A DNA stretch of 64,000 bases, from contig JAFNIQ010000001.1 in NCBI GenBank assembly GCA_017601395.1, forward strand, positions 16,542 through 80,541, in the 5' to 3' direction. Within the stretch, counting starts at the first letter, position 1; each line of letters opens with the position of its first letter. The translations under genes were made by a program, and so were the position numbers. Shown in pieces: positions 4,879-24,005 of the stretch. This stretch comes from Candidatus Brockarchaeota archaeon. Its GTDB lineage: Archaea > Thermoproteota > EX4484-205 > JAAOZP01. The notes below the pieces were generated by a model, which was not told the origin of the DNA, searched no databases, and saw only the letters and a list, made by a program, of their open reading frames with translations.

Positions 4879-7479
4879 CTACGCTGGAGGAGGTGGAGGC
4901 GGCGGAGGGAGTGGTTGGGCGTAGGAAGGCTTCCTTCTTCTCAGCAGGAGTATGGCAATGATGACAACAATTAGAGCTAAGACAGCTGCGTATAGCCAAA
5001 TAGGTATGCCGACGGTGTATTTTGACACGGGTGTTCTGGCCTCATTGCCCACGTTATCAACCGCCTCAACATAGTACTGGACCTCTTTGAAGAACATTTG
5101 AGAAGGTATGGAGCCCCTGTAAACCCCTTCTTCAAGAACCATCGCGACCTTTGTCCAGGAGGAGCCTCCGTCTGTTGAGTAGTAAAGGCCGGCCTCCTTG
5201 ACTCCTGAAACCGCGTCTGAAACCTGGCATATTATTGTTGTTTGTTCTCCGAAGACAGGGTTTGAGGGCGCTGACAAGCCTGTGATCATGGGCGGAGAAT
5301 TGTCCACCTTAAGCGTGAAAGAGCCGCTCCAAGACGCCGCATTATCCATGTTGTCAACTGCCTCAACACTCCAATTGTGGCTTCCCTCGGAAAGGGTTAT
5401 TGTCTTAGAATACTCGCTGCCGCCAGCCATGGTTCCCTGCGGAATCCCGTCGACAGTGAGCCTAACCTCCTTAACCCCTGAGCCGGCATCCTCAACCCTG
5501 ACTGTGAACTTTACGGACGTTGAGCCCATGACTATGCTTCCGGTGGGTGAAACGCCACTTATGGCGGGAGGAGTGCTATCAAGGATTACGGATACTGTTT
5601 TCTCAGCCTCATTGTTATCGGCCCTGTCTATACTGTAGTATCCTATCGTATGGGGACCGTCTGAAAGGGCTGAGAGAGTAAAGCCTGATGTATAGATATT
5701 CCAAGAGCCGCCATCAATCCTATACTTAGTCTGTTTAACCCCGCTCGCATCGTCTGTCGCTGAAAGCTCGAACAACGTTGAGCCTGAAACAAAGATTGTT
5801 GCACCACTCGAATGCTTGGGATCATAGCTTATGGTTGTTACTGGAGGATTTGTATCAGGGATGACTGTGACTGTTGCTGTGCTGAGGGTTAGGCCTGTGG
5901 CTGAGGCTGTTAAGATCCATGTCCCTCCTTTCACATCGTAATAGTCAACCTTAACCATGCTTGAGCCCGCTAGAATTGTTATGCTCGTTATCCTGGTTGT
6001 GGTTCCGAATTTTCTGAACTCTCCCTCAGGCGATGTTGTTGAAAGGCTTACGATTATGGGTGTGGCGGTGGTGGTTTCATAGCCGTTAGCATCCCTGATA
6101 GAGATGTTGAGGTATGAGTATGTTACTCCAGCAGCCATGGTGAAGCTTGAAGGCGTTAAAGCAAGCTTCTCTGGAGGACCCGCCTTAACGTTGAAGGGGT
6201 TGCTCTCACCAGTCTTACCCGCGCCGCTAGTAGAAATCTTAACACTGTCCCCTATCCTGCTTATAGTCACCATGCCGGTCCACTTCCCGTTTACGAACGC
6301 ACCTGTTAACCTGGGCTCTATGGTTCCAGTGGTGTCTGAAAGGGTGTTTGTCCCAGTGTAGTCGGTCTTAACATTGCCATAGGCATCATAGGCAGTAATG
6401 GTTATTGAGAATGGCACTGCAACCTGCTTCGGCGAAGTTATGGTGTCGAATGCGAAACGGTCAAGCGGCCCCGGCTTAACGGTCAACTGTTTAGTATCGT
6501 CTCCGTAATTAGGCACGAAAATTATGAAGCCGCCGCTCCAAGTAAAATACATGTAATCGTCTGTCCAAACATGAATATCCCATGTCCCAGCCTTATCATC
6601 ATAATACCAGAACTCTTTAGAGTTTCCATCGGATTCAGATATTGTCAGCTCCGTTATCGCTGACCCGCCTTGGGTTAGAGAGAACTTCTTGTTGGCTGAG
6701 GTTGAGGTTGAGCTAAGCTTAACCTTTAAATCTCCACGGGTCACGGGCTCACCGTTATAGGTTTTCCGGGCGACGGTCAACTTAACCCATTTACCAGCTT
6801 CAAGCGTGGTGCTTGCAAGACTAAGCTCCAAGTGAGGAGGATAATACTTAACCTCAAGGTAGGGACGCAGGCTTGAATCATCGTGTTCCTTAGAATACAT
6901 ATACCAATAAATTTGAGTAGCGGCCGATTCAGTGCTGTCCTTAAGCCTCCAACCGAAGTTTGGCATCGCGCCAGCAATATCCTTCGACGCAAACTTTTCA
7001 ACTGAACTCTTCACATCAACACTAAGCCAAACGTTTGAAGTGGTGCCGACTGTTATGGATGATACTGAAACCATGGCTGGAGGCTGATTGTTCCACGTGA
7101 TTGTTCCCTCGTCCCAACCATCTGCATTAACAAGATGACACGCCAACGTTCTGCTTGAAGAAGGAGCTTTATACATGAATAGCTTGAGGCTGGCTGAAAC
7201 GATTACTGAGCCCGGAGGAATCGTGTTCAGATCAAACTTTATGAAGGAGCGCCAAACTTGAGAATCGCTGGAACCAGCGCTAACCCCTATATGTGTAAGA
7301 GCACCGTAATTGTTACTGCTAAAGGATCCTCCTGCAACTAACGCGTCCCCTACAGGGGAGAAGCGTCTGGTTAGCAGAGGAACCTCGTCACCTGCTACTC
7401 TCGTAACGATGCATGGTGTTTCCGAGCATACGATTATTATGATTATTAAAAGGCCTAATATTAGACTTGACTTATTCAA
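4879..7479 (-). CDS. Large cell-surface protein: signal peptide, DNRLRE-like N-terminal domain, multiple Ig-like domains including three tandem ~95-aa repeats, a C-terminal TM anchor and a poly-Pro tail
   Basis: N-terminal hydrophobic signal. Residues ~75-130 read WRSFIKFDLNTIPPGSVIVSASLKLFMY…TWNNQP (DNRLRE-domain-like). Three repeats carry D-x-SGVK and (S/T)xDGGSW motifs. The C-terminus reads IWLYAAVLALIVVIIAILLL-RRRK followed by PLPPPPPPPPA. Confidence 0.7.
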   Translation of the reverse strand: MNKSSLILGLLIIIIIVCSETPCIVTRVAGDEVPLLTRRFSPVGDALVAGGSFSSNNYGALTHIGVSAGSSDSQVWRSFIKFDLNTIPPGSVIVSASLKLFMYKAPSSSRTLACHLVNADGWDEGTITWNNQPPAMVSVSSITVGTTSNVWLSVDVKSSVEKFASKDIAGAMPNFGWRLKDSTESAATQIYWYMYSKEHDDSSLRPYLEVKYYPPHLELSLASTTLEAGKWVKLTVARKTYNGEPVTRGDLKVKLSSTSTSANKKFSLTQGGSAITELTISESDGNSKEFWYYDDKAGTWDIHVWTDDYMYFTWSGGFIIFVPNYGDDTKQLTVKPGPLDRFAFDTITSPKQVAVPFSITITAYDAYGNVKTDYTGTNTLSDTTGTIEPRLTGAFVNGKWTGMVTISRIGDSVKISTSGAGKTGESNPFNVKAGPPEKLALTPSSFTMAAGVTYSYLNISIRDANGYETTTATPIIVSLSTTSPEGEFRKFGTTTRITSITILAGSSMVKVDYYDVKGGTWILTASATGLTLSTATVTVIPDTNPPVTTISYDPKHSSGATIFVSGSTLFELSATDDASGVKQTKYRIDGGSWNIYTSGFTLSALSDGPHTIGYYSIDRADNNEAEKTVSVILDSTPPAISGVSPTGSIVMGSTSVKFTVRVEDAGSGVKEVRLTVDGIPQGTMAGGSEYSKTITLSEGSHNWSVEAVDNMDNAASWSGSFTLKVDNSPPMITGLSAPSNPVFGEQTTIICQVSDAVSGVKEAGLYYSTDGGSSWTKVAMVLEEGVYRGSIPSQMFFKEVQYYVEAVDNVGNEARTPVSKYTVGIPIWLYAAVLALIVVIIAILLLRRRKPSYAQPLPPPPPPPPA

Positions 7480-13906: not shown

Positions 13907-14051
13907 GAATTAACGGGTGAAAAACAGTAAACATAAGAGTTAAACCTTCCGTGAAGGATGTGGTATCCCTATAAGATGCAAGTCTTTATATACTGCCGGT
14001 TTGTCAGAGAAGGATTTGAAATGATAAAAACTGTTTGGTGCGTCACATTCT

Positions 14052-14309
14052 ATGTTTCCGAAACTTGAAGAGTGTAAACATGTTGCTTCAAAATCGCCGT
14101 CAGTGGAGTTTCTTGTTGAAAACGTGGAAAGGTTTTATGAGGAGTTAAAAGGTAAGGGTGTAAAGTTTATTAGGGAGTTGCATGAGGAGCCGTGGGGAGG
14201 GAAGCAAGCGACTTTTACAGACCCTGATGGAAACATTTTAGAGATAGTGCAGATCGATTGGGAGAAATACTTTAACGTATCTGCCCAAGGAGCGAAAAAG
14301 AGGGCATAA
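14052..14309 (+). CDS. VOC-family (glyoxalase/bleomycin-resistance-like) domain protein, single C-terminal module only; probably truncated or frameshifted
   Basis: The 85-aa ORF ends …WGGKQATFTDPDGNILEIVQ, typical of VOC C-terminal strands. A 16-codon ORF in another frame (14021-14068, MIKTVWCVTFYVSET*) resembles a VOC N-terminal strand. Confidence 0.45.
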   Translation: MFPKLEECKHVASKSPSVEFLVENVERFYEELKGKGVKFIRELHEEPWGGKQATFTDPDGNILEIVQIDWEKYFNVSAQGAKKRA

Positions 14310-14399
14310 GTATTAGCGTGTGCTACTATGAAGGCATGTAAAACCTCTCAGGGCCTTCCATAATGGATCTGTAACGCTACCCGCCCTAAAACAATACCG

Positions 14400-15539
14400 C
14401 TACGCCTCGAACAAGATTCCTCCTATGAGGGTCATTCGAACCCTGAAGTCTTCACCTATTACAACCATGTCAGCATCCTTCCCCTCTTCTATGCTTCCTT
14501 TACACTCTTCAACACCGAGCAATCTAGCCGGGTTATACGAGGCCACTTTGGCTACTGAGCTTAAAGGAACACCTGTAAACTTGGCGAAGCGTCTAGCCAG
14601 CTCGCTCATGCCTGCTGATGTTCCGATCAAAGTGCCGTCCACGTATCTCGCCGTCCCGTTTGAAGAGATGAATTCAATGCCATTGTAAACATACTTGCCG
14701 TCAGGTAAACCCGTTGACCTCACCCCGTCTGTTATCAATACGATTCGATCTTCACCTAAAATCCTCGTTGCGAATCTTACCATGGATGGGTGAATGTGAA
14801 CACCGTCGGATATTATCTGCACGGTCACATCCTTAGACTCGAATATGGCTATCGCCGGTCCTGGAGCCCTATGGTGAATAGGCGGCATAGTGTTGAAGAA
14901 ATGAGTAACATGCTTAACGCCAATTCTTATGGCTTTCAGGGTCTGCTCATAGTCTGCTGAAGAATGGCCGAAGGATACTATCACCCTGTTTTCAAGCAGA
15001 AGGCTTATAACCTGCTCCGAGCCCTCAAGCTCCGGAGCCAGAGTCATCATCTTCAGCCAGCCCTTACACTTATCCATTATCTCAGACAAGACTTTAACCG
15101 AAGGCTCGCAGACCGAGGATTCTTGGATCATTCCTCTTTTCTCCCTGGAGATGAACGGGCCTTCCAAATGGAATCCTAGAAACCTAGCTCCGTTTAAGCC
15201 CTTCGAGAACCCGTTCAACGCAGCCTCTAAATGCTTGTTTTCAAAACCCGGCTTATAGACGGTGGTTGCAAGAAAACCTGTGACTCCAAACTTGACGCAT
15301 GTTTCAGATATAGTGCTAACTGCTTCCTCATCCTCGTCGAGAATGTCAGCTCCTCCTGCACCCTGTATGTGAACATCTATAAAGCCTGGGAACAAAAAGT
15401 CACCTTCCAGATCAATACTCTCGCCCTCCATGTAGCCGTAGAGTGGTTTACCGATCTTCCTTATCCTCCCACGGTCGATTAGAACGTCTCCAAACGTTTC
15501 CCCCCAAGGGTTAACTATCCTCGCGTTTTTAATCAGCAT
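14400..15539 (-). CDS. nagA: N-acetylglucosamine-6-phosphate deacetylase (amidohydrolase superfamily)
   Basis: GFIDVHIQGAGGAD metal-binding motif plus downstream conserved His/Asp positions. Length 379 aa. Confidence 0.8.
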   Translation of the reverse strand: MLIKNARIVNPWGETFGDVLIDRGRIRKIGKPLYGYMEGESIDLEGDFLFPGFIDVHIQGAGGADILDEDEEAVSTISETCVKFGVTGFLATTVYKPGFENKHLEAALNGFSKGLNGARFLGFHLEGPFISREKRGMIQESSVCEPSVKVLSEIMDKCKGWLKMMTLAPELEGSEQVISLLLENRVIVSFGHSSADYEQTLKAIRIGVKHVTHFFNTMPPIHHRAPGPAIAIFESKDVTVQIISDGVHIHPSMVRFATRILGEDRIVLITDGVRSTGLPDGKYVYNGIEFISSNGTARYVDGTLIGTSAGMSELARRFAKFTGVPLSSVAKVASYNPARLLGVEECKGSIEEGKDADMVVIGEDFRVRMTLIGGILFEA

Positions 15540-15811
15540 TCAACACTGGTTTAAGCCCATTGAGCTATTAAATCTTCCTCCTTTGGAAACAACAGGTCTC
15601 TAAAAACCGAACAGACTTTTTGAAATCGAGCACTTCCACCTCAATCTCCTGCCTCGTGTTTTTAAACCTCATCCAGTAATTGTAACCGCCTTGAAGCTCA
15701 AGATTCCCAACTGTTTTCAACCTGTTTTCCAAAAGCCTTCCGTAGGGTTTAAGCCCCATTTTTCATCCTCACAAACATGTATTTTTCATCGTCAATGTTC
15801 TTATGATTATT

Positions 15812-15827
15812 AAAAAAATTTATATTT
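15812..15827 (+). promoter_or_regulatory. Putative archaeal BRE/TATA element (aaaaaaatttatattt) about 27-30 nt upstream of the small ORF start at 15854
   Basis: Purine-rich run followed by TTTATATT. The spacing to the ATG is consistent with a leaderless or very short-leader transcript. Confidence 0.35.
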
Positions 15828-15853
15828 GAGCTCAAACATAAAATAAATCCGAA

Positions 15854-16009
15854 ATGAAATTCGTACCTCTCCAAAAAGGAAGTACACCAGAGCCTGGTAC
15901 AAGGCCGCTCACATGTTGTGGTAGTAATTTCCATTTTGGAACGTATTGCACGCCAGTAAAGGGGCCGACCCAGATTATCAGCGATATTAAGGCGCTTAGG
16001 GAAGACTAA
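15854..16009 (+). CDS. Unannotated 51-aa small ORF, candidate RiPP precursor peptide (MKFVPLQKGSTPEPGTRPLTCCGSNFHFGTYCTPVKGPTQIISDIKALRED)
   Basis: ATG at 15854. The TAA at 16007-16009 overlaps the ATG (16009-16011) of the radical SAM/SPASM gene as TAATG. Three Cys sit in a Gly/Thr/Ser-rich stretch. A TATA-like box lies upstream. The ORF is below the length cutoff of the ORF track. Confidence 0.4.
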   Translation: MKFVPLQKGSTPEPGTRPLTCCGSNFHFGTYCTPVKGPTQIISDIKALRED

Positions 16010-17340
16010 TGAAAGTGAAAGCTTCTAGGTTTAATTTTTTTATACCTTTCTCAGATGGTTATTTAATATACAACACGTTTAATGGTGCACTGGCTTTTAT
16101 TGATGCGGAACTTAAGAACTTAGAGGCCAGCGACTTTCAAAAATTGCCTCCCAATCTTTTAAAAAGTCTCTTAGATCAGGGATTCTTAATCGAGGAGTTC
16201 GTCGATGAATTGCTAATGTACGAGTATTATTTCAACCTAGCAAGATACTTAACAAGTTCTGTAGGCTTTCTTCTATTAACTACGTATGATTGCAACTTTA
16301 ATTGTGTTTATTGTTATGAGAGACCTGTTATTTCCAAAGTTTATATGGATCTTGATGTCGCAAGAAGAACCGCTACTCATATTACCAAATTTACTGATGG
16401 GAAAATGGCTAAACATGTTGAGATAACTTTGTATGGTGGTGAACCCTTGCTGAATCTCAACATAGCTCAGGTAGTGTTAGATGAAGTTTTGAAATGGTGT
16501 CAGAAAAATGGTGTATCGTTGGATATCAATCTCGTAACAAATGGCTCACTTATAACTCCTGAAGTTGTTAATAGTCTTAAAGCATACAATCTTAACTCCG
16601 TTCAAGTGACGATGGATGGTCCAAAGGAAATTCACGATAAAAGAAGACCCTTTCGAAACGGCATGGGTTCTTTTGATGTAATAATGTCAAATGTTCTTAA
16701 TTGTATAGATAGTCTGCCCATAACTATAAGGGTCAATGTTGACAAGGGAAACGTCTCTTATTTCCCTGCTTTTTTGGATTTACTAGACGATTTGGGTCTA
16801 AAAAATAAAGCGGGATTATGGATTGCAATGCTTCATGGATTAGATGACTATTGTAAAACTATGAAATTTAATGATAAAGAAGCAAACGAAATACGTTACA
16901 ATATGTGGAGGCTTGCTCTCAAAAGAGGCTTCAAATTCGGATGGTATCCCTCAAGATTCCATTTATGCGATGCGATGAGGGACAACGCTCAGATAATCGA
17001 TCCTAAGGGCAATATATATAAATGTTGGAGTTTTGTAGGACTTGAAGAGTGTACTGTGGGTAAAATAGGAGAAGGAACTTACAAGCCTTATTTTTATGAA
17101 TTGTTAACTAGGAATCCTATAAGAGACGCAAAATGCAGCAGATGTAATGTACTGCCATACTGTAATGGGGGGTGCCTATATGAAGCTTACTGCCATACTG
17201 GGAATAGATCTAATTTTGTATGCGGTGTTCTTCAGGGAAAGGAAGCGTTAGAGAGCATGCTTACTCTACATGTTATTAGTATGTACAAGGAAAAACTTGT
17301 AAAGAGTGAAGTAAGCGTAGGCAATGAAATCTATGATTAA
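16009..17340 (+). CDS. Radical SAM enzyme with C-terminal SPASM domain (peptide-modifying maturase family; anSME-like)
   Basis: CNFNCVYCYERP (CxxxCxxC) near residue 95. C-terminal …YKCWSF…ECTVGK…CSRCNVLPYCNGGCLYEAY auxiliary-cluster (SPASM) cysteines. Confidence 0.85.
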   Translation: MKVKASRFNFFIPFSDGYLIYNTFNGALAFIDAELKNLEASDFQKLPPNLLKSLLDQGFLIEEFVDELLMYEYYFNLARYLTSSVGFLLLTTYDCNFNCVYCYERPVISKVYMDLDVARRTATHITKFTDGKMAKHVEITLYGGEPLLNLNIAQVVLDEVLKWCQKNGVSLDINLVTNGSLITPEVVNSLKAYNLNSVQVTMDGPKEIHDKRRPFRNGMGSFDVIMSNVLNCIDSLPITIRVNVDKGNVSYFPAFLDLLDDLGLKNKAGLWIAMLHGLDDYCKTMKFNDKEANEIRYNMWRLALKRGFKFGWYPSRFHLCDAMRDNAQIIDPKGNIYKCWSFVGLEECTVGKIGEGTYKPYFYELLTRNPIRDAKCSRCNVLPYCNGGCLYEAYCHTGNRSNFVCGVLQGKEALESMLTLHVISMYKEKLVKSEVSVGNEIYD

Positions 17341-18412
17341 TGCCATTGTTACAGAAGAGCTTACAAGAATTTTCAAAACCTATGTCCTAAAGGGTTACTA
17401 TGAAAGCGGTTGGGAACATGGAGGGGTTTTTCTTTACAATATATGGAAAAGACTTAGAGCTGAGAAGACAATGGTTCAAGCTCTAAAGGGAATTAACCTC
17501 AGAGTTAGAGAGGGAGAGTTCGTTTTCCTCGTAGGTCCGAACGGCTCCGGTAAGACTACGTTGATAAGGATATTAGCAACTTTTCTCCTACCTACCAGCG
17601 GAAAGGCCTTCGTAGCGGGATATGATGTTACGCATCAGAAAAGAGAAGTCTTGAAAAACATTAGTTACATACCCTCTCTTCTCGCAGGGGCTGCTTGGGC
17701 CCATGTAGGGCTTACAGTGGGAGAAAACCTAAAAATAATGGCAAGGCTCTTCGGCTACTCGGAGAAAACATTAGACGAAGCCTTACGGACGTTGGAAATA
17801 GAGGATCTTAAGAATAGAGTCTTCGGATCCCTTTCCACGGGCCAGCAAGCCCGGGTCGTTCTAGCTTTAGGCATGATCAAGAATGCTCCAATCTTCCTTC
17901 TAGATGAGCCAACGTTAGGTCTAAGCCCTGAAGCCGTGCGGATAGTCCTAGATTATTTAAAGTATCTAAATGAAAAGATGAAGGTTACAATTCTTTACGC
18001 CACTCATCACCTTATGGAGGCTCAGAAAATGGCTGATCGAGTGGTCTTCCTGAAAGACGGTACCATATTGGTCGATGGAGATCCAAAAAGCATAATTAGG
18101 AGCGTGGGAATTACAGAAACAATAATATTGGAGATTCATCATGCATACTTCGATATTGGCAAAGTCCTACATGAAATTGAGGACCGCTGTATATTTACCA
18201 ATGCCGAGTTATTGGAATCTGAAACGGGTGAATACGTCGTCAAGCTCGGTGTAAAGGATAGTGGGGAGGTTCTCCCCGAGATAATCCACAAGCTAGTGTC
18301 GAGAGGTTCAAGAATTAAGAATGTGAAAGTGTTGGAACCCTCTTTAGAAGATGCGTTTATGTATTATGCGAGGAGGGGTCCTGGGAGTGCGGAAATACAA
18401 GGAAATAGTTAG
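17324..18412 (+). CDS. ABC transporter ATP-binding protein
   Basis: Walker A GPNGSGKTT, signature LSTGQQARV, Walker B IFLLDEPT. The start overlaps the rSAM gene by 17 nt. Confidence 0.85.
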   Translation: MKSMINAIVTEELTRIFKTYVLKGYYESGWEHGGVFLYNIWKRLRAEKTMVQALKGINLRVREGEFVFLVGPNGSGKTTLIRILATFLLPTSGKAFVAGYDVTHQKREVLKNISYIPSLLAGAAWAHVGLTVGENLKIMARLFGYSEKTLDEALRTLEIEDLKNRVFGSLSTGQQARVVLALGMIKNAPIFLLDEPTLGLSPEAVRIVLDYLKYLNEKMKVTILYATHHLMEAQKMADRVVFLKDGTILVDGDPKSIIRSVGITETIILEIHHAYFDIGKVLHEIEDRCIFTNAELLESETGEYVVKLGVKDSGEVLPEIIHKLVSRGSRIKNVKVLEPSLEDAFMYYARRGPGSAEIQGNS

Positions 18413-19241
18413 GGTCAATCTCCGACATGTTCTCAGCTTCTACAAGGAGGAGGTGAGTGTAACTACTGCTTGGTGGGCTTGGAACATACCGTTTCAGCTT
18501 GCCAGTATCCTAATATCCTTACTCATCTATTACTATTATGCATTAGCGTTTGGAGGCTATAGCCCTCTTTTTGGAGAAAACTTCATGACATTCATAATAG
18601 TGGGGCTCATGATGAACACTTATCTAGATATTTCTATGGATGCTTATTACTCCGCGATCAGCGCGCTCTATATGGGCAAAGAGGGTATAGGTGGACTAGC
18701 TATAAGTAGAATGGACTACCTTAGTCTGGCAGGAATTTCGCCTTATGTATTTATCTTTGCGAGGATCAGCTATTATTACATAACGCAGACTATCGTATTC
18801 CTTTTGTATTTTCTGGCTGGACAGTTTTTCGGCGTTAGTATCCCTTTTTTAGAGAATCTCGGTTTGGTCGTGATAGCCATGATGCTTGGTATAATTGCTT
18901 GCAGTGGCATAGGGCTGATATCGGCTAGCATGTATTGGCTTGCTGGTAGCTATAGGGGTGTTGAACCAATTAGATGGACTATAAGGATGCTTGTACCGCT
19001 TCTCTCCGGGATATTTGTACCTCTTCATGTTTTACCAGAATCGATCAGAGCAATAAGCATATTGCTTCCTCAGACTCATACATTACAAGCAGTCAGAGCA
19101 TCTCTTGCAGGAGCTACCTTATCTCAGATACTTCTGAACTTAGAAGCACTGATAATATTCTCGGTAGTACTCGTACCGGTCGGATTATTACTGCTTAAAT
19201 ACTCACTTAATCTGGAGAGAAAAAGAGGCACGATCTACTAA
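18351..19241 (+). CDS. ABC-2 type transporter permease (6 TM). The true start is probably an internal Met or GTG a few codons downstream.
   Basis: Six hydrophobic helices and an ABC-2-like length. It overlaps the preceding ATPase gene. Confidence 0.7.
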   Translation: MRLCIMRGGVLGVRKYKEIVRVNLRHVLSFYKEEVSVTTAWWAWNIPFQLASILISLLIYYYYALAFGGYSPLFGENFMTFIIVGLMMNTYLDISMDAYYSAISALYMGKEGIGGLAISRMDYLSLAGISPYVFIFARISYYYITQTIVFLLYFLAGQFFGVSIPFLENLGLVVIAMMLGIIACSGIGLISASMYWLAGSYRGVEPIRWTIRMLVPLLSGIFVPLHVLPESIRAISILLPQTHTLQAVRASLAGATLSQILLNLEALIIFSVVLVPVGLLLLKYSLNLERKRGTIY

Positions 19242-19366
19242 ATAATGGCTTAGCCCGCGCATGTCTCCAACGATTTCCTCTCTGGTTAACTCGAATCTAT
19301 GCATGCCGGTGGGGCATACGAGAGGTCAAATATTTAGGTTTTTAGAAACCGATTAATTGACCTTAA

Positions 19367-20728
19367 TCATACTTGTGAGACAAGTTTTCTTGCTCTTTCA
19401 GCAAGTTCCGCGCGTTTCCACATTATATCCTTCGGCAGGGTTAATGAGGCAGCGGTGAGAACCACGGCGCATATCGACCAGGTTATGGTTATTATCACCA
19501 CCATTCCCCATTCCAATCCTATGATGTCTGCCAAGTAGCCAGTAATAAGCGGGGCAAAAGCGGAGCCTGCGTTTTCAACGAATACCTGTACTGATTGAAT
19601 GGTGCTCCTGACCTCGGGAAGAGCTATGTCTTGAAGGGAAGCTGTTACAGCAGGGCCCGCCATAGGAATGAAGAAGCCGGTAAGCGCTCCGAACGCGGCG
19701 AAGAGCTCCACGCCACCCTTCGTCAAAAGCGTCAGGTCGAAAAAGACCAGGCCCACGGCCACCGATATCCCGGCGAAAATCGCCCTCCCTTTCAAAGTCT
19801 TCCTGAACGCCCAGTCGCTCGTTATTCCTGCAACAACGTTACCGGCAACCATCGCTGCAATCGCAACAAGCATTATGAACAGCTGTGAATCCGGGTCGAA
19901 CCCCCTCTCATAAGTCATGTAGGCAAAAAGCCAATAGGTTATTATCTGCCAAGGGAAGACTCCGAAGAAGCCCTGCGTAAAAAGGAAGATCATCGATTTT
20001 CTCCTCAGCACTTCGATCAACGACTCCTTTCTAAAAGTATCTTTCAACTTATCCTTCACAGCAAGCAGTTCCGGCTCAGTGGAACCCCTCGGCTTGTCTC
20101 TTAACGTGGCCACTATTAGAACTGCCAATAGCAAGCCGGGCACCCCAGTTATCATGAAGGCGCTGCGCCACCCTAGGGTGCTGCCCATGATGGTTCCAAT
20201 AATGGTTCCAAGTAGGGCCCCGATTGCAGCGGAAGTATTCAGTATGCCGAAAGCTGTAGACCTTTTCTCAGGTGGGAAATGGTCGCCAATGAACGAGACT
20301 ATCCCGCTAGTCGCCTCATTATCAATCCCGGTTAAGGCCCTGGTAAAGGCCAGCTCCACGAAATTCCTTGAGAAGGTTGAGAACACGGTTGTTCCCCCCC
20401 AGATAGCGCTGGCTAAAGCGGCTAGGTGGGGTCTAGCGTACTTGTCGAAAAGGTAGCCCCAGAGGGGCATGAAAATCACTGCAACTACTGCGGCGCCAGT
20501 CTGTATGGCGCCCAGCTGAGTATATGAGAGAGTAAACTCATCCTTTATCGAGGGAAGGAGCGGCGAGATTAGAAACTTATCCGAATTATGGAGCACCATG
20601 AATAGGAAGAACACGAAGACCGCGTACCAAGCTTCGCGCGATATACTGTAGGATGGAATCCTAGCCATCCTGTGCCCACCCCTACCTAAGGTCCCTCCAG
20701 CCAACCAGAGTGAAACCCAGTTCCTCAA
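19367..20728 (-). CDS. MFS transporter. The start is probably at the internal Met 60 nt downstream (about 20668).
   Basis: 12 predicted TM helices. The motif G-x-L-x-D-K-Y-A-R-P after TM2 is typical of the major facilitator superfamily. Confidence 0.75.
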   Translation of the reverse strand: MRNWVSLWLAGGTLGRGGHRMARIPSYSISREAWYAVFVFFLFMVLHNSDKFLISPLLPSIKDEFTLSYTQLGAIQTGAAVVAVIFMPLWGYLFDKYARPHLAALASAIWGGTTVFSTFSRNFVELAFTRALTGIDNEATSGIVSFIGDHFPPEKRSTAFGILNTSAAIGALLGTIIGTIMGSTLGWRSAFMITGVPGLLLAVLIVATLRDKPRGSTEPELLAVKDKLKDTFRKESLIEVLRRKSMIFLFTQGFFGVFPWQIITYWLFAYMTYERGFDPDSQLFIMLVAIAAMVAGNVVAGITSDWAFRKTLKGRAIFAGISVAVGLVFFDLTLLTKGGVELFAAFGALTGFFIPMAGPAVTASLQDIALPEVRSTIQSVQVFVENAGSAFAPLITGYLADIIGLEWGMVVIITITWSICAVVLTAASLTLPKDIMWKRAELAERARKLVSQV

Positions 20729-21557
20729 CTATTTGTCGAGCCTCCTTAGAGGTGACCAGCTGGTAATCCAGATACCTGTCTACGTGGCTCGTCACGCCAT
20801 GGCTAGGTATTATTGCCTTCATCTCCTCTTCGGGAAGGCCAAGGTGTACTATTATCTGAGTCAATGTTCCAGGCTTAATATCCTTCAAAACATCTCTAAA
20901 CCATTTTATTCTTTCCTGCAGGTCGGAGCCGAATGTAATGCCGATGAAATTATCAAGCATAGACGTACCGGATTTAAGAATCCTGCTTACAAGATCATCT
21001 GATATAGTTATGCCCATCTGCTTAGCCACTTCGAACGCGCTGTCAGTGGGTTTAATCAACATCGGGATAAGGCCGTTATCCAAGGCAACCTTCACATAGG
21101 TCTCTAAGAGATCCGGCCTGAAGAAAACAGTGCCCATGTGAGTATCAAGATGAGAGGGCTGTAGACCAAGGTCGAAAGCCCTTTTCACCTGCACCCTCAG
21201 CTCAGCCTCAACCTCCTTCCGCGAGGCTTTTGCAGCATCCTTCGCCTCCTTATGCAGGTATCCCTGCTCATCTAAGAGGGTTGGAACCTCGCTCCTTGAA
21301 CTAACCGGGCCCCACCTGTAGAGCCTCCACTCGCTCGTCAGCGTCGAATGTATCCCGTAGTCGTAACCCGGGTTCTCCTTGAAGAACTCAACCGCTTCGA
21401 GTATCCATGGGCATGGCATCATAAGGCTGCAGCTTGAAACCACGCCGTTTTGAAACCCTAGGAAGGTTGCCTTATTCTCTGCGTGACACATGCCGACATC
21501 GTCTGCATGGATAATCAGAAGCTTGTCATTCCGGTCGAAGCCGCCAGTCAACGGCAT
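20682..21557 (-). CDS. YdjC/ChbG-family carbohydrate deacetylase
   Basis: The N-terminal LLIIHADDVGMCHAENKA motif, with its metal-binding Asp and His, is characteristic of YdjC-like deacetylases. Confidence 0.75.
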   Translation of the reverse strand: MPLTGGFDRNDKLLIIHADDVGMCHAENKATFLGFQNGVVSSCSLMMPCPWILEAVEFFKENPGYDYGIHSTLTSEWRLYRWGPVSSRSEVPTLLDEQGYLHKEAKDAAKASRKEVEAELRVQVKRAFDLGLQPSHLDTHMGTVFFRPDLLETYVKVALDNGLIPMLIKPTDSAFEVAKQMGITISDDLVSRILKSGTSMLDNFIGITFGSDLQERIKWFRDVLKDIKPGTLTQIIVHLGLPEEEMKAIIPSHGVTSHVDRYLDYQLVTSKEARQIVEELGFTLVGWRDLR

Positions 21558-21783
21558 ACTTGTGAGCTAGAAATGCTAAAATATAAATTTTTAAAAAACA
21601 AGGCAGTTTCTCGCCATGTATGCAACATATTACTGCATCCTCAATAAACTCCTCATCTTAAGATAGTGGAATAATCCTTAAGTATTAACAGTCTCGCTGC
21701 ACTATCTTTTAGAGACAGGTCGACTTTCCGAAGCGTTTTAGCTTAAATGACTAAAATATTCGCTTTTTCAAGACGCGCAAAAA

Positions 21784-23055
21784 TTACGACTCAGCGTATT
21801 GCTTGATTCTGATTCGATACGTCAGTAAAGCTAAAGCCAAGAGTATAGCAGTCGAGGAAAATATCTTAACAGAGTCTAGAATCAGGGTCTCGGCAAAAGT
21901 TTCGAACACGAGTATCCTGCGGCTGGTCTCAATACTCCAGGCTGGGGGAAAGATTACAGCCAGCAATCTTACGGGTTGAGGCATCCATTCCAAGGGAAAC
22001 CAGATCCCGGTGGTAAAACTAAGAAGAAGGCCGAGGACGGTACCCATGCCTGAAGCACCTCTCACCGTTTTTGATAACAGTGAGACTAGGGCTCCGATGC
22101 TCATGCTCATCAGGGCTCCGCAGACCATGAAGGCGACAGCTAGAAGGTGTATCGGATTCAATGGGTCTAAAACGATGCGTGCCCCCACAGCTGGAGAGAT
22201 TCCTACAAGTATCAGTATCAATGCGGATATTAGTAGGGTCGTTAATTGAGATAGGAAGCTTCCAACTATAAACTCTCCTTCAGTAAGCGGGGTTGAGAAA
22301 AGCTTCCTAAGAGTCCCCCTCTCCTTCTCGGAGACTATGAGTATCGCGCCGCTGTTAAACCCGAAGTAGAGGAACATCATGCCTATTGCTCCAATCGTAT
22401 ACCAGCCCAGTGTTCTCACACGGTCTTCAAAGAACTCTGGAGATACGTGGTCAATAGTTAAGTCTAATGGTCGCATGATGCCTTGTACAGTAGCGTTAAA
22501 CCACCGTTTCTCCTCCTCTGAGACAGGCAACCATTTGATTATGTTCACTGCTTTTTCAACCCTCTTAAACGAGATTCCTTCAGAGAACCTTTCGAGAAAG
22601 CCTATTATTATTGAGGAAGATATTTGTGCAGACTCCGGGGTTCTTGAACCAACGTATGCGTGAAGCCTTGCTTTCTCAACCGGATTGATTACAGCGTAGC
22701 CTAATCCTTCAGGCACAACTATTACGCCGTCAAGCTCACCTCTCCTCAAAGCCCGTAACGCTTCCTCCTCAGATTGATAGGATTTCACGTTAAACAGCTT
22801 TGAATCGTTATACTCTGCCTCCTCCAAGAACTTAATTAAAGACGAGCCGTTAAGCGGCGTTTGAGAGCTGTCTAAGTTTACAATCCCAAGGTTAAGCACT
22901 ATTGTTCCCCCGTCACCGGTCGGCGGCACGAAAATGTATGCAGTCATGAAGATCCATATCAGCGGCCATGCTACGAGCCAGAAAACAAACGTCTTATCTC
23001 TAATCATCAGCTTTAAATCACGAATGATGAATGAAACCATTGGTTTTATTCTCAT
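21784..23055 (-). CDS. ABC-2 family permease with a large extracytoplasmic loop (YhgE/Pip-like topology)
   Basis: N-terminal TM, an extracytoplasmic domain of about 170 aa, then 5-6 C-terminal TM helices. It is translationally coupled to the upstream ATPase with a 4-nt overlap. Confidence 0.65.
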   Translation of the reverse strand: MRIKPMVSFIIRDLKLMIRDKTFVFWLVAWPLIWIFMTAYIFVPPTGDGGTIVLNLGIVNLDSSQTPLNGSSLIKFLEEAEYNDSKLFNVKSYQSEEEALRALRRGELDGVIVVPEGLGYAVINPVEKARLHAYVGSRTPESAQISSSIIIGFLERFSEGISFKRVEKAVNIIKWLPVSEEEKRWFNATVQGIMRPLDLTIDHVSPEFFEDRVRTLGWYTIGAIGMMFLYFGFNSGAILIVSEKERGTLRKLFSTPLTEGEFIVGSFLSQLTTLLISALILILVGISPAVGARIVLDPLNPIHLLAVAFMVCGALMSMSIGALVSLLSKTVRGASGMGTVLGLLLSFTTGIWFPLEWMPQPVRLLAVIFPPAWSIETSRRILVFETFAETLILDSVKIFSSTAILLALALLTYRIRIKQYAES

Positions 23056-24005
23056 TCCTCCAGCCTCCTTCCGGTTAGCTTTAGAAAAACATCTTCAAGC
23101 GTAGGCTTGACTACGCTTACACTCAACACCCTTACTCCTTTCTCACCGAGGATTAGTATGGTCTTAGGCAGATCCTCGTCGGGGTCGTCAGTATGAACAC
23201 GTACTTCGCCGTTACAACTATAAACGTTTCCCCAACGGCTCTTTAAAACAGCAGAAGCATTCTCGACTTGTTCAGGAACGGGCTTAATCACTAGCACAGC
23301 TGGCGGGGCATAGAGTTTTTTAAGCTCCTCAGCACTGCCCTCCGCGATTAACTTACCCTTGTCTATTATTGCAACCCTGTTTGCAAGTCCTTCTGCCTCG
23401 TCAACAAGATGAGTCGCCATGAGGATGGTAACTCTGTTTGAAACTTTTTTGCGTAACAATTCTAGGACGCTTCTGCGCATAGCCGGGTCTAAAGCTGTAG
23501 TCGGCTCATCAAGTATCAGCAGCTCAGCCTCAATGGCTAGGGACAGTATGATTGAAGCGAGTTTCATCTGCCCCGTTGACAGTTTGGAAGAGAGCTTGGT
23601 TGCCAACTCCTGAACACCCAATTTTTCAAAAAGCCACTTAGCCTCCTGGCGGACAGTATTCCTGTTAAAACCGTATAACGATGCGTAGAAATCAACATTC
23701 TCCATTACTGTTAGCCAAGGATATAGTGGTGGAGTCGCTGGAAGATAGGAGATTTTTAAACGCGTTGACGGATCGAAAGGACTACCCCCAAGAACCCTAA
23801 TGCTTCCAGACGTCGGCTTCATAACGCCAGCTATAATGTTGAACAACGTTGACTTGCCTGCACCATTCGGCCCTATGAAAACGTATACCTCGCTAGGCCT
23901 AACCGTGAAGCTGACCGCGTCCAGCGCGACGACACTGTTATATGATTTAGAAATTCCTTGAGCAGCAACCACTTCCTGCCCCATGATTCTATCACATTGT
24001 TTCAA
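23052..24005 (-). CDS. ABC transporter ATP-binding protein
   Basis: Walker A GPNGAGKSTLFN, signature LSTGQMKLA, Walker B LILDEPT. Confidence 0.85.
   Translation of the reverse strand: MKQCDRIMGQEVVAAQGISKSYNSVVALDAVSFTVRPSEVYVFIGPNGAGKSTLFNIIAGVMKPTSGSIRVLGGSPFDPSTRLKISYLPATPPLYPWLTVMENVDFYASLYGFNRNTVRQEAKWLFEKLGVQELATKLSSKLSTGQMKLASIILSLAIEAELLILDEPTTALDPAMRRSVLELLRKKVSNRVTILMATHLVDEAEGLANRVAIIDKGKLIAEGSAEELKKLYAPPAVLVIKPVPEQVENASAVLKSRWGNVYSCNGEVRVHTDDPDEDLPKTILILGEKGVRVLSVSVVKPTLEDVFLKLTGRRLEE

Follow-up and report, generated by a model that had tools for sequence, protein, structure and literature searches.

A horizontally acquired cassette in a Brockarchaeota archaeon that probably encodes a cysteine-rich peptide and its radical SAM maturase

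The described systems closest to the one reported here are those in which a radical S-adenosylmethionine (SAM) enzyme with a SPASM domain acts on a short, cysteine-rich precursor of a RiPP, a peptide made on the ribosome and modified after its translation. The RiPP recognition element (RRE) is the leader-binding domain of such enzymes. The SCIFF maturase CteB of Clostridium thermocellum (thermocellin; PDB 5WGG/5WHY), for example, consists of an RRE, a radical SAM core and a SPASM region, forms thioethers, and has its Cys-rich precursor encoded immediately upstream. PapB (freyrasin) and QhpD also make thioethers, in their case from Cys to a side chain within short repeated motifs. A number of RiPP and antibiotic clusters carry ATP-binding cassette (ABC) pairs of the ABC-2 or DrrAB type for export and immunity, e.g., McbEF (microcin B17), AlbC/AlbD (subtilosin) and LanFEG. 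A locus of this general kind is found in a 64,000-nucleotide stretch of DNA (the window) from a Candidatus Brockarchaeota archaeon, described as a hot-spring organism (assembly GCA_017601395.1, contig JAFNIQ010000001.1, positions 16,542 to 80,541).

Archaeal specialised metabolism is largely unexplored. Surveys list many antiSMASH-predicted ranthipeptide and sactipeptide clusters across the archaea; the product of none of these predicted radical SAM clusters has been characterised, and characterisation in archaea is limited to the lanthipeptides of haloarchaea (PMC12144867). A 2026 paper described ranthipeptides as 'only recently reported in archaea' (PMC13635244). The locus in the window is, with good probability, a compact, horizontally acquired RiPP cassette that encodes a Cys-rich precursor, a radical SAM enzyme predicted to cross-link it and a predicted exporter. 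Its parts are as follows.

15773..19262: inserted cassette, 3,490 bp, guanine-plus-cytosine (GC) content 0.40, holding the putative promoter region and the precursor, radical SAM/SPASM, ATPase and permease genes and nothing else; bounded by blastn breakpoints against the cassette-free loci L113 and L114, and present at the same site in the sister locus L111
15812..15827, plus strand: putative promoter read from the sequence, an A-run and then a TATA-like tttatattt (15819-15827), about 31 nt 5' of the ATG
15854..16009, plus strand: precursor peptide gene, 51 aa in the window genome, with the leader at about aa 1-20 (15854-15913, MKFVPLQKG...PLT), the core at aa 21-35 (15914-15958, CCGSNFHFGTYCTPV) and a tail at aa 36-51
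16009..17340, plus strand: RRE-radical SAM-SPASM peptide maturase, 443 aa, with the RRE at about aa 1-85 (16009-16263)
17324..18412, plus strand: DrrA-type ABC ATPase, 362 aa, whose C-terminal domain is DrrA1-3_C-like
18351..19241, plus strand: ABC-2 type permease, 296 aa if the longest open reading frame (ORF) is taken

An earlier note, made from the letters alone, had proposed four plus-strand ORFs of 51, 443, 362 and 296 aa with overlapping frames, and the ORF listing has them where it placed them. The frames overlap as TAATG at the peptide/maturase boundary, by 17 nt between maturase and ATPase and by at most 62 nt between ATPase and permease; the N-termini of its orthologues suggest that the permease is likely to start at 18366 (ATG) or 18387 (GTG). 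The domain calls of that note also hold in Pfam and NCBIfam: Radical_SAM with Fer4_12, ABC_tran with a DrrA C-terminal domain, and ABC2_membrane. Its further proposal, that the order follows the logic of precursor, maturase and exporter, is borne out by matches to RiPP-type families, a conserved precursor and an RRE at the N-terminus of the enzyme. This architecture is standard for radical SAM/SPASM RiPPs, and the locus has the general marks of a RiPP cluster: a precursor adjoining its modifying enzyme and kept in relatives, its leader conserved and its core variable.

Comparison of sequences shows the small ORF to be a real precursor gene that is conserved. Relatives of the maturase at 41-51% identity (P0002-P0011) form a tight clade, whose contigs were fetched. 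In every orthologous locus (L016, L018, L019, L022, L024, L026, L108, L109, L110 and L111) one homologous small ORF precedes the radical SAM gene by 7-37 nt on the same strand, so the partnership that the earlier note had suggested is conserved and co-located in all of the related loci examined. Leaders of about 20 aa share the motif M-x-hhh-L-E/R/Q-E/K-G: the window has MKFVPLQKG, and other loci have MDIVVLEEG, MELIILEEG, MEVIVLRKK, MELIMLRKG, MRVRVLEKG, MLLVPLEEK and MEIIPLREG. The core in most loci follows the consensus CC-x-x-N-(FH)-C-G-T-Y-C-x-P-V. In L022, L026 and L110 (the last of Archaeoglobales), which form a second group, the Cys residues are patterned differently and the peptide ends in -TW; over all precursors the CC pair provides the sole invariant core residues. 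A conserved leader with a variable core (the GTYC group and the -TW group) is typical of RiPPs. The -TW precursors, which combine the shared leader with a different Cys-rich core, lie at 3703-3804 of L022 (...RRNTW), 2880-3005 of L026 (...EEPATW) and 1426-1545 of L110 (...PPPSTW), the last from a metagenome-assembled genome (MAG) of Archaeoglobales.

Selection appears to act on the peptide itself, because conserved residues use different synonymous codons between loci (Cys TGT/TGC, Asn AAT/AAC, Thr ACG/ACA/ACC, Tyr TAT/TAC, Pro CCA/CCG, Val GTA/GTC). Translated in all six frames, the 64-kb window has one occurrence of the leader motif and one of the core motif, both at the small ORF. The leader pattern is found once per clade locus, always just 5' of the radical SAM gene, and not at all in 827 kb of other fetched loci; it was built from the clade sequences themselves, so only its specificity counts as evidence. 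Neither the window nor any clade locus has a second copy of the precursor. A structured RNA in place of a peptide gene was also considered and rejected, since the Rfam scan of the region gave no match and the codon pattern is that of protein coding.

Precursor genes of this sort can escape annotation. The small ORF is usually missed by gene callers, for example in L111, and a profile search of 5.8 billion proteins returned only two called peptides of the family, both directly 5' of orthologous radical SAM and ABC genes, which illustrates the point. A Pfam and NCBIfam scan of the window peptide gave no match, and a search of NCBIfam at E <= 10 with ten peptides (that of the window, six of its orthologues and three from the broader family) found nothing relevant. 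Other uncurated precursors with a similar leader, e.g., MEVIKKGSDNVSAIGPLGCCFPPGTESFRVR, MILEIVDQGIGPLPGPEGSRCCFWIRGSYG and MRLEVLEHG...GCCCQGCSGDLMFGSGC, stand beside relatives of the maturase at about 30% identity on metagenome contigs (L042, L051, L059, L066, L075 and L078; L036, L039 and L048; L086 and L107). They suggest a much larger superfamily of peptides with a MEII-type leader and a CC core.

The maturase has the features of a radical SAM peptide-modifying enzyme. PF04055 scores 57.3 bits (cutoff 29.5), and the CX3CX2C motif, C95-N-F-N-C99-V-Y-C102, is invariant in 11/11 clade members. The SPASM region aligns to that of CteB; its C376-x2-C379-x5-C385-x3-C389 is likewise present in all 11, with C320, C339 and C405 invariant and C282 nearly so. 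The N-terminal domain is a PqqD-like winged helix, three β strands followed by three helices, as in an RRE. The AlphaFold2 model, for which the clade alignment was used, is confident, with a predicted local distance difference test (pLDDT) score of 86.6, and its closest fold in Foldseek is CteB (E = 3e-17, template modelling score 0.67-0.71), followed by TigE, SuiB, the anaerobic sulfatase maturase anSME, ChlB, SkfB and PqqE. The clade profile matches CteB at E = 1e-35, and PqqE is a weak PDB match (E = 2e-5).

NCBIfam scores rank the RiPP maturases of Cys-rich peptides exclusively at the top: CefB (NF038107) at 291.3 bits against a cutoff of 600, TIGR04463 at 239.3 against 525, the geopeptide maturase (TIGR04280) at 203.4 against 400, the Clo7bot maturase (TIGR04334) at 202.2 against 600, FlmE/OhkG at 165 against 500 and PapB (NF047865) at 147.7 against 340. 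Lower are QhpD (TIGR03906; 126.4 against 453), the SCIFF maturase (TIGR03974; 97.4 against 425), the cyclophane-forming families YhhB (74), GrrM (57) and FxsB (57), and the anaerobic sulfatase maturase (TIGR03942; 68.4 against 349). Since all scores lie under their cutoffs, the maturase belongs to none of these curated families. The prospect raised with the earlier note, that the enzyme might fall into a non-RiPP family such as anSME, is not what the scores indicate, and neither the cassette nor any orthologous locus has a sulfatase, amine dehydrogenase or pqq client gene. By analogy, its cross-links are probably Cys thioethers, because CteB, PapB and QhpD make thioethers and because the CC pair is the one invariant feature of the core. 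Homology to thioether synthases is also all that points to the sactipeptide or ranthipeptide class. The two differ in whether the Cys sulfur is bound to the α carbon (sactipeptides) or to a β or γ carbon (ranthipeptides) of the acceptor residue, and the sequence would fit the one as well as the other.

Membership in the cyclopropyl synthases (TvgB/TigE) was examined and rejected. TigE is a methyl-cyclopropylglycine synthase for which a GYW motif is defining, its Tyr being a ligand of auxiliary cluster I (PMC10878394). The motif is absent from 11/11 clade sequences, where the aligned region reads N-M-W or E-L-W, and cyclopropyl chemistry is therefore unlikely here.

ATPase orthologues (44-52% identity) and permease orthologues (46-60%) lie directly 3' of the radical SAM gene in the clade loci with enough downstream sequence. 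The exception is L026/L027, where a fused ABC_membrane-ABC_tran exporter takes the place of the ABC-2 pair. The best family for the ATPase is TIGR01188 drrA (208 bits, cutoff 312), with PF00005 and a weak PF13732; the permease orthologues carry precomputed PF01061/PF12698 matches. Flanking genes differ in every clade locus, so the conserved unit is exactly peptide, radical SAM enzyme, ATPase and permease. The four genes are presumably co-transcribed. The cognate ABC pair is essentially absent downstream of the relatives at about 30% identity, mostly from bacterial MAGs; ATPase and permease co-occur with the maturase only within a small archaeal clade. The pair would export the product, and may provide immunity to the producer.

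That clade is sparsely represented. A HMMER scan of 1.84 billion representatives of 50%-identity clusters recovered two from the tight clade (420 and 371 bits), with the next at 304 bits, and 2,114 representatives of the broad radical SAM family at E <= 1e-30. Scans of metagenomes and species genomes with the maturase met only the broad family of about 25-38% identity, which served as the out-group. The window maturase is 100% identical to a protein of a Candidatus Brockarchaeota MAG. A distinct radical SAM/SPASM paralogue, 26% identical, is found at 6001-6975 of another Candidatus Brockarchaeota contig (L009, JAFNIV010000018.1). Since L009 carries such a paralogue, the Brockarchaeota may hold further peptide-maturase systems.

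The cassette was acquired horizontally, by a clean insertion into a resident gene. The loci L113 and L114 (Thermoproteota, NagA 89% identical) share the flanking synteny YdjC - MFS - X - NagA - FAD oxidase - ETF and have no cassette; X is an intact 358-aa gene of the Antibiotic_NAT family (PF02522). DNA homology between the window and L113 ends at 15772 and resumes at 19263 (blastn), and remnants of the X gene lie on both sides.

15601..15735, minus strand: Antibiotic_NAT C-terminal remnant (aa 312-356), within a 63-aa ORF at 15568-15759; tblastn with the L113 protein, 62% identity, E = 2e-13
19260..19304, minus strand: Antibiotic_NAT N-terminal remnant (aa 1-15), at the syntenic position; tblastn, 10/15 identical

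Breakpoints and remnants together indicate that a segment of 3,490 bp replaced approximately codons 16-304 of the resident gene, and on this alignment the 63-aa minus-strand ORF is the C-terminal remnant of that gene. The sister genome GCA_017601305.1 (L111; Brockarchaeota, NagA 98% identical) shares the cassette and its site of insertion, its DNA being 99% identical over 14056-24000, and the Logan assembly L112 has the same sequence as L111. The low GC content that the earlier note had seen is borne out by the numbers. Over the 46 window ORFs of at least 150 aa the mean GC is 0.479 with a standard deviation of 0.026, and the three large cassette genes are the lowest: 0.362 for the maturase (z = -4.45), 0.433 for the ATPase (z = -1.77) and 0.421 for the permease (z = -2.21). 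At third codon positions the z values are -4.15, -1.93 and -2.15. Cassettes in other archaeal loci have GC contents of 0.33-0.40, and the composition is consistent with an archaeal donor of lower GC.

A mobile-element vector has no support. The insert has no integrase, transposase or convincing terminal repeat, and close relatives are lacking in IMG/VR viral contigs (<= 26% identity) and PLSDB plasmids (<= 33% identity). A 10-bp direct repeat, ATTTTTCATC, at 15758-15767 and 15781-15790 straddles the left junction (15772/15773); it might be microhomology used in illegitimate recombination, or chance.

The precursor of the window genome is a derived allele. In the sister genome the peptide is MKFVPLQKGSTPEPGTRPLTCCGSNFHCGTYCTPVKGPT* with 39 aa, and the window differs at exactly two nucleotides. 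TGT has become TTT at 15936, changing to Phe a Cys (Cys28) that is conserved across the GTYC group, and TAG has become CAG at 15971 (codon 40, 15971-15973), replacing the stop with Gln and adding 12 codons until the start of the radical SAM gene is reached. The result is an allelic pair of 39 aa with 4 Cys (sister) and 51 aa with 3 Cys (window). Out-groups (e.g., L016, ...NFHCGTYCSPVKKPS*) agree with the sister, whose allele is shown by them to be ancestral; the length of 51 aa and the peptide/maturase overlap are therefore lineage-specific. The 51-aa ORF abutting the maturase, as reported in the earlier note, does exist in the window, but these two features are peculiar to this one genome and not to the family.

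The maturases of the two sisters differ by 8 nonsynonymous changes and a one-codon indel against 3 synonymous changes, with 5/9 of the protein differences in the RRE. Peptide and maturase together have 10 nonsynonymous and 3 synonymous changes versus 19 and 57 codon changes in flanking genes (Fisher odds ratio 10, p = 5e-4, in a small sample), and the ATPase and permease are nearly unchanged. The window enzyme keeps all 71 clade-invariant columns, including every cluster-binding Cys, and all of the ORFs are open. This pattern reflects either diversifying selection on the peptide and its recognition partner or relaxed constraint after transfer. The window system may yield an altered product, or may be on its way to losing its function.

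Several observations weigh against a functional, thioether-forming RiPP cassette. The maturase meets no curated family cutoff, the best being CefB at 291 of 600 bits. Nothing relevant came from a literature search on CefB, Cys-every-fifth, geopeptide, Clo7bot and FlmE/OhkG, and with no published chemistry found for the best-scoring families in the library searched the thioether assignment relies on characterised enzymes that are more remote. TigE, second among the structures, forms C-C bonds and not thioethers (PMC10878394). The permease scores just under the gathering thresholds (PF01061 24.0 bits against 26.9; PF12698 26.6 against 31.6). There is no leader protease in the cassette, so removal of the leader is not accounted for. 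In the window allele a Cys conserved in the family and the ancestral stop are gone, and the excess of nonsynonymous change is compatible with relaxed constraint. This last set of facts bears on a cassette that no longer functions in the window genome, i.e., a recently acquired island drifting toward a pseudogene with its precursor already damaged. Both differences in the small ORF from the 99%-identical sister are radical, and the nonsynonymous excess of the maturase, concentrated in the RRE, is significant relative to flanking genes. Decay is nevertheless somewhat unlikely, for the four ORFs are intact, 71/71 invariant columns are retained, the transporter genes are near-identical between sisters, and the CC pair and the GTYC.PV motif are kept; rapid change of core and RRE is also expected under diversifying selection on a secreted peptide, and few substitutions were sampled.

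A different modification in the same RiPP cassette (C-C cross-links such as cyclophanes or Lys-Trp, cyclopropylglycine, epimerisation, or another radical change at the conserved Asn, Phe, His, Thr or Tyr) is a little less probable again. SPASM maturases of the same fold carry out diverse chemistry, with TigE (methyl-cyclopropylglycine) the second-best structure and SuiB (Lys-Trp) close by (PMC10878394). The core has conserved aromatics (F, H, Y), the window allele tolerates the loss of one Cys, and the best NCBIfam families are those for which published chemistry was not found in the library searched. Set against this are the missing GYW in all 11 clade members, the scores of cyclophane families (57-74 bits) relative to Cys-rich-peptide maturases (148-291 bits), the fact that only the CC pair is invariant in the core, and the thioethers formed by all of the nearest relatives with known chemistry (CteB, PapB and QhpD). 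It is quite improbable that the peptide is instead the precursor of a cofactor or metal ligand (like pyrroloquinoline quinone (PQQ), mycofactocin or a metallophore) and the ABC system has another transport role. PqqE and QhpD are detectable relatives, a Cys/His-rich core could bind metals, and an immunity or protease gene is lacking; however, the scores for PqqE and QhpD are far under cutoff, and no partner of PqqB/C/D, mycofactocin or dehydrogenase type occurs in any orthologous locus, where the flanks all differ. A patchy, mobile distribution, a hypervariable core and a dedicated exporter fit secreted peptides better. Hardly credible is a chance ORF with a non-RiPP enzyme, e.g., an anaerobic sulfatase maturase, beside an unrelated transporter. 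Such a reading could draw on the peptide's lack of Pfam and NCBIfam matches, its omission by gene callers (as in L111) and the structural likeness to anSME, but conservation of the peptide in all orthologous loci with synonymous codon variation effectively refutes it. The enzyme moreover carries an RRE domain and scores 68 bits for anSME (cutoff 349), no Rfam RNA occurs in the region, and the four genes move as one insert. A horizontally acquired RiPP cassette with predicted cross-linking and export accommodates these observations best.

Gene content, conservation of the precursor, domain architecture with its cluster motifs, four-gene co-inheritance and the insertion were observed directly in this analysis. 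We infer binding of the leader by the RRE, thioether chemistry, export and any biological activity along the following lines. A short mRNA starting just 3' of the TATA-like box would encode the precursor with its leader of about 20 aa and its Cys-rich core. Because the box lies only about 31 nt 5' of the ATG, this mRNA is suggested to be near-leaderless, and no Shine-Dalgarno element is seen between box and ATG in the window. The putative promoter of the sister genome is the same, save for one extra A; orthologous loci have A/T-rich TATA-like boxes 25-55 nt upstream, with a Shine-Dalgarno-like GGTG before the conserved Met in five. The N-terminal RRE of the maturase would bind the leader, and the radical SAM core, through its CX3CX2C cluster, would cleave SAM to the 5'-deoxyadenosyl radical, with two auxiliary [4Fe-4S] clusters predicted in the SPASM domain. 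By analogy with CteB, PapB and QhpD, the enzyme most likely abstracts hydrogen from acceptor residues of the core, to which Cys residues would then be joined as intramolecular thioether bridges, each with a loss of 2 Da. The DrrA-type ATPase and ABC-2 permease would export the product and may protect the producer. A protease, a regulator and a separate immunity gene are all missing from the insert, as the earlier note had also seen.

The cassette sits in an apparent neighbourhood for amino-sugar utilisation, with a NagA-like N-acetylglucosamine-6-phosphate deacetylase, an MFS transporter and a YdjC-family deacetylase (14400-15539 and 19367-21557, minus strand). The disrupted Antibiotic_NAT gene is like aminoglycoside N-acetyltransferases and is intact in related genomes. 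A glyoxalase-family ORF at 14052-14309 on the plus strand (region 13909-14416) has 85 aa in the window and 133 aa in the sister; the alignment breaks at about 14056-14061, where the sister has about 107 nt more, and the gene is missing from L113 and L114. It is probably truncated in the window genome, and its place, between the genes for the FAD oxidase and NagA, is a second point of variation. A second, unrelated ABC pair, a DrrA-type ATPase with a 423-aa ABC-2 permease, lies 2.5 kb downstream (21784-24005, minus strand). It is present in the sister and L114 and absent from L113, and so is variably present too.

The main interest of the system is the prospect of a first chemical characterisation of an archaeal radical SAM-modified peptide. 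It offers a tractable target, in that a precursor family with leader/core boundaries and variants, a maturase and an exporter are contained in a synthesisable unit of 3.5 kb. The natural pair of 39-aa and 51-aa alleles could help to tell the cross-linked cysteines from the others. With its clean insertion into a resident gene, the cassette is also a documented case of a RiPP unit passed horizontally, and recently, between thermophilic archaea.

Compared with known systems, the window enzyme resembles CteB most: among solved structures it is the nearest when the full length is compared, with the same succession of RRE, radical SAM and SPASM and the same position of a Cys-rich precursor, and a likeness in chemistry is predicted by analogy. 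It differs from CteB in sequence (about 20% identity; SCIFF model 97 against 425 bits), in having an archaeal host and in its dedicated ABC-2 exporter, and the precursor is not a SCIFF peptide, since it has no NCBIfam match. CefB, TIGR04463, geopeptide and Clo7bot maturases are the best matches, align nearly end to end and are all paired with short Cys-rich peptides, but the scores are about half of the cutoffs, the precursor motif is another one and these systems are bacterial. Homology to PapB and QhpD is significant (148 and 126 bits) although under both cutoffs, and by eye the Cys-x3-Asn spacing of the window core resembles the Cys-x3-Asp motif of PapB. TigE/TvgB (PDB 8VPO) systems are unlike it, both in the GYW motif that the clade lacks and in the TIGSVS or TVGG repeats that the window precursor lacks. 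As in the DrrAB-type export-immunity clusters, an ATPase and ABC-2 permease pair follows the maturase, the ATPase being nearest the DrrA subfamily; its score is below the DrrA cutoff, however, and neither a peptidase-containing ABC transporter (PCAT) nor a separate protease is present. Novelty lies in a small archaeal clade that has an uncurated precursor family to itself, along with a cognate ABC-2 exporter and a history of clean insertion. It is conceivable, if doubtful, that this clade founds an archaea-specific class of radical SAM cross-linked peptides, whose precursors (CC..N..GTYC.PV and -TW variants) would be a family apart and whose cross-links would perhaps have a new topology. Members of such a class would pass between thermophilic archaea, Brockarchaeota and Archaeoglobales among them, in the form of a minimal mobile cassette of four genes, with core and RRE under diversifying selection as for an 'archaeocin' of antagonism or signalling.

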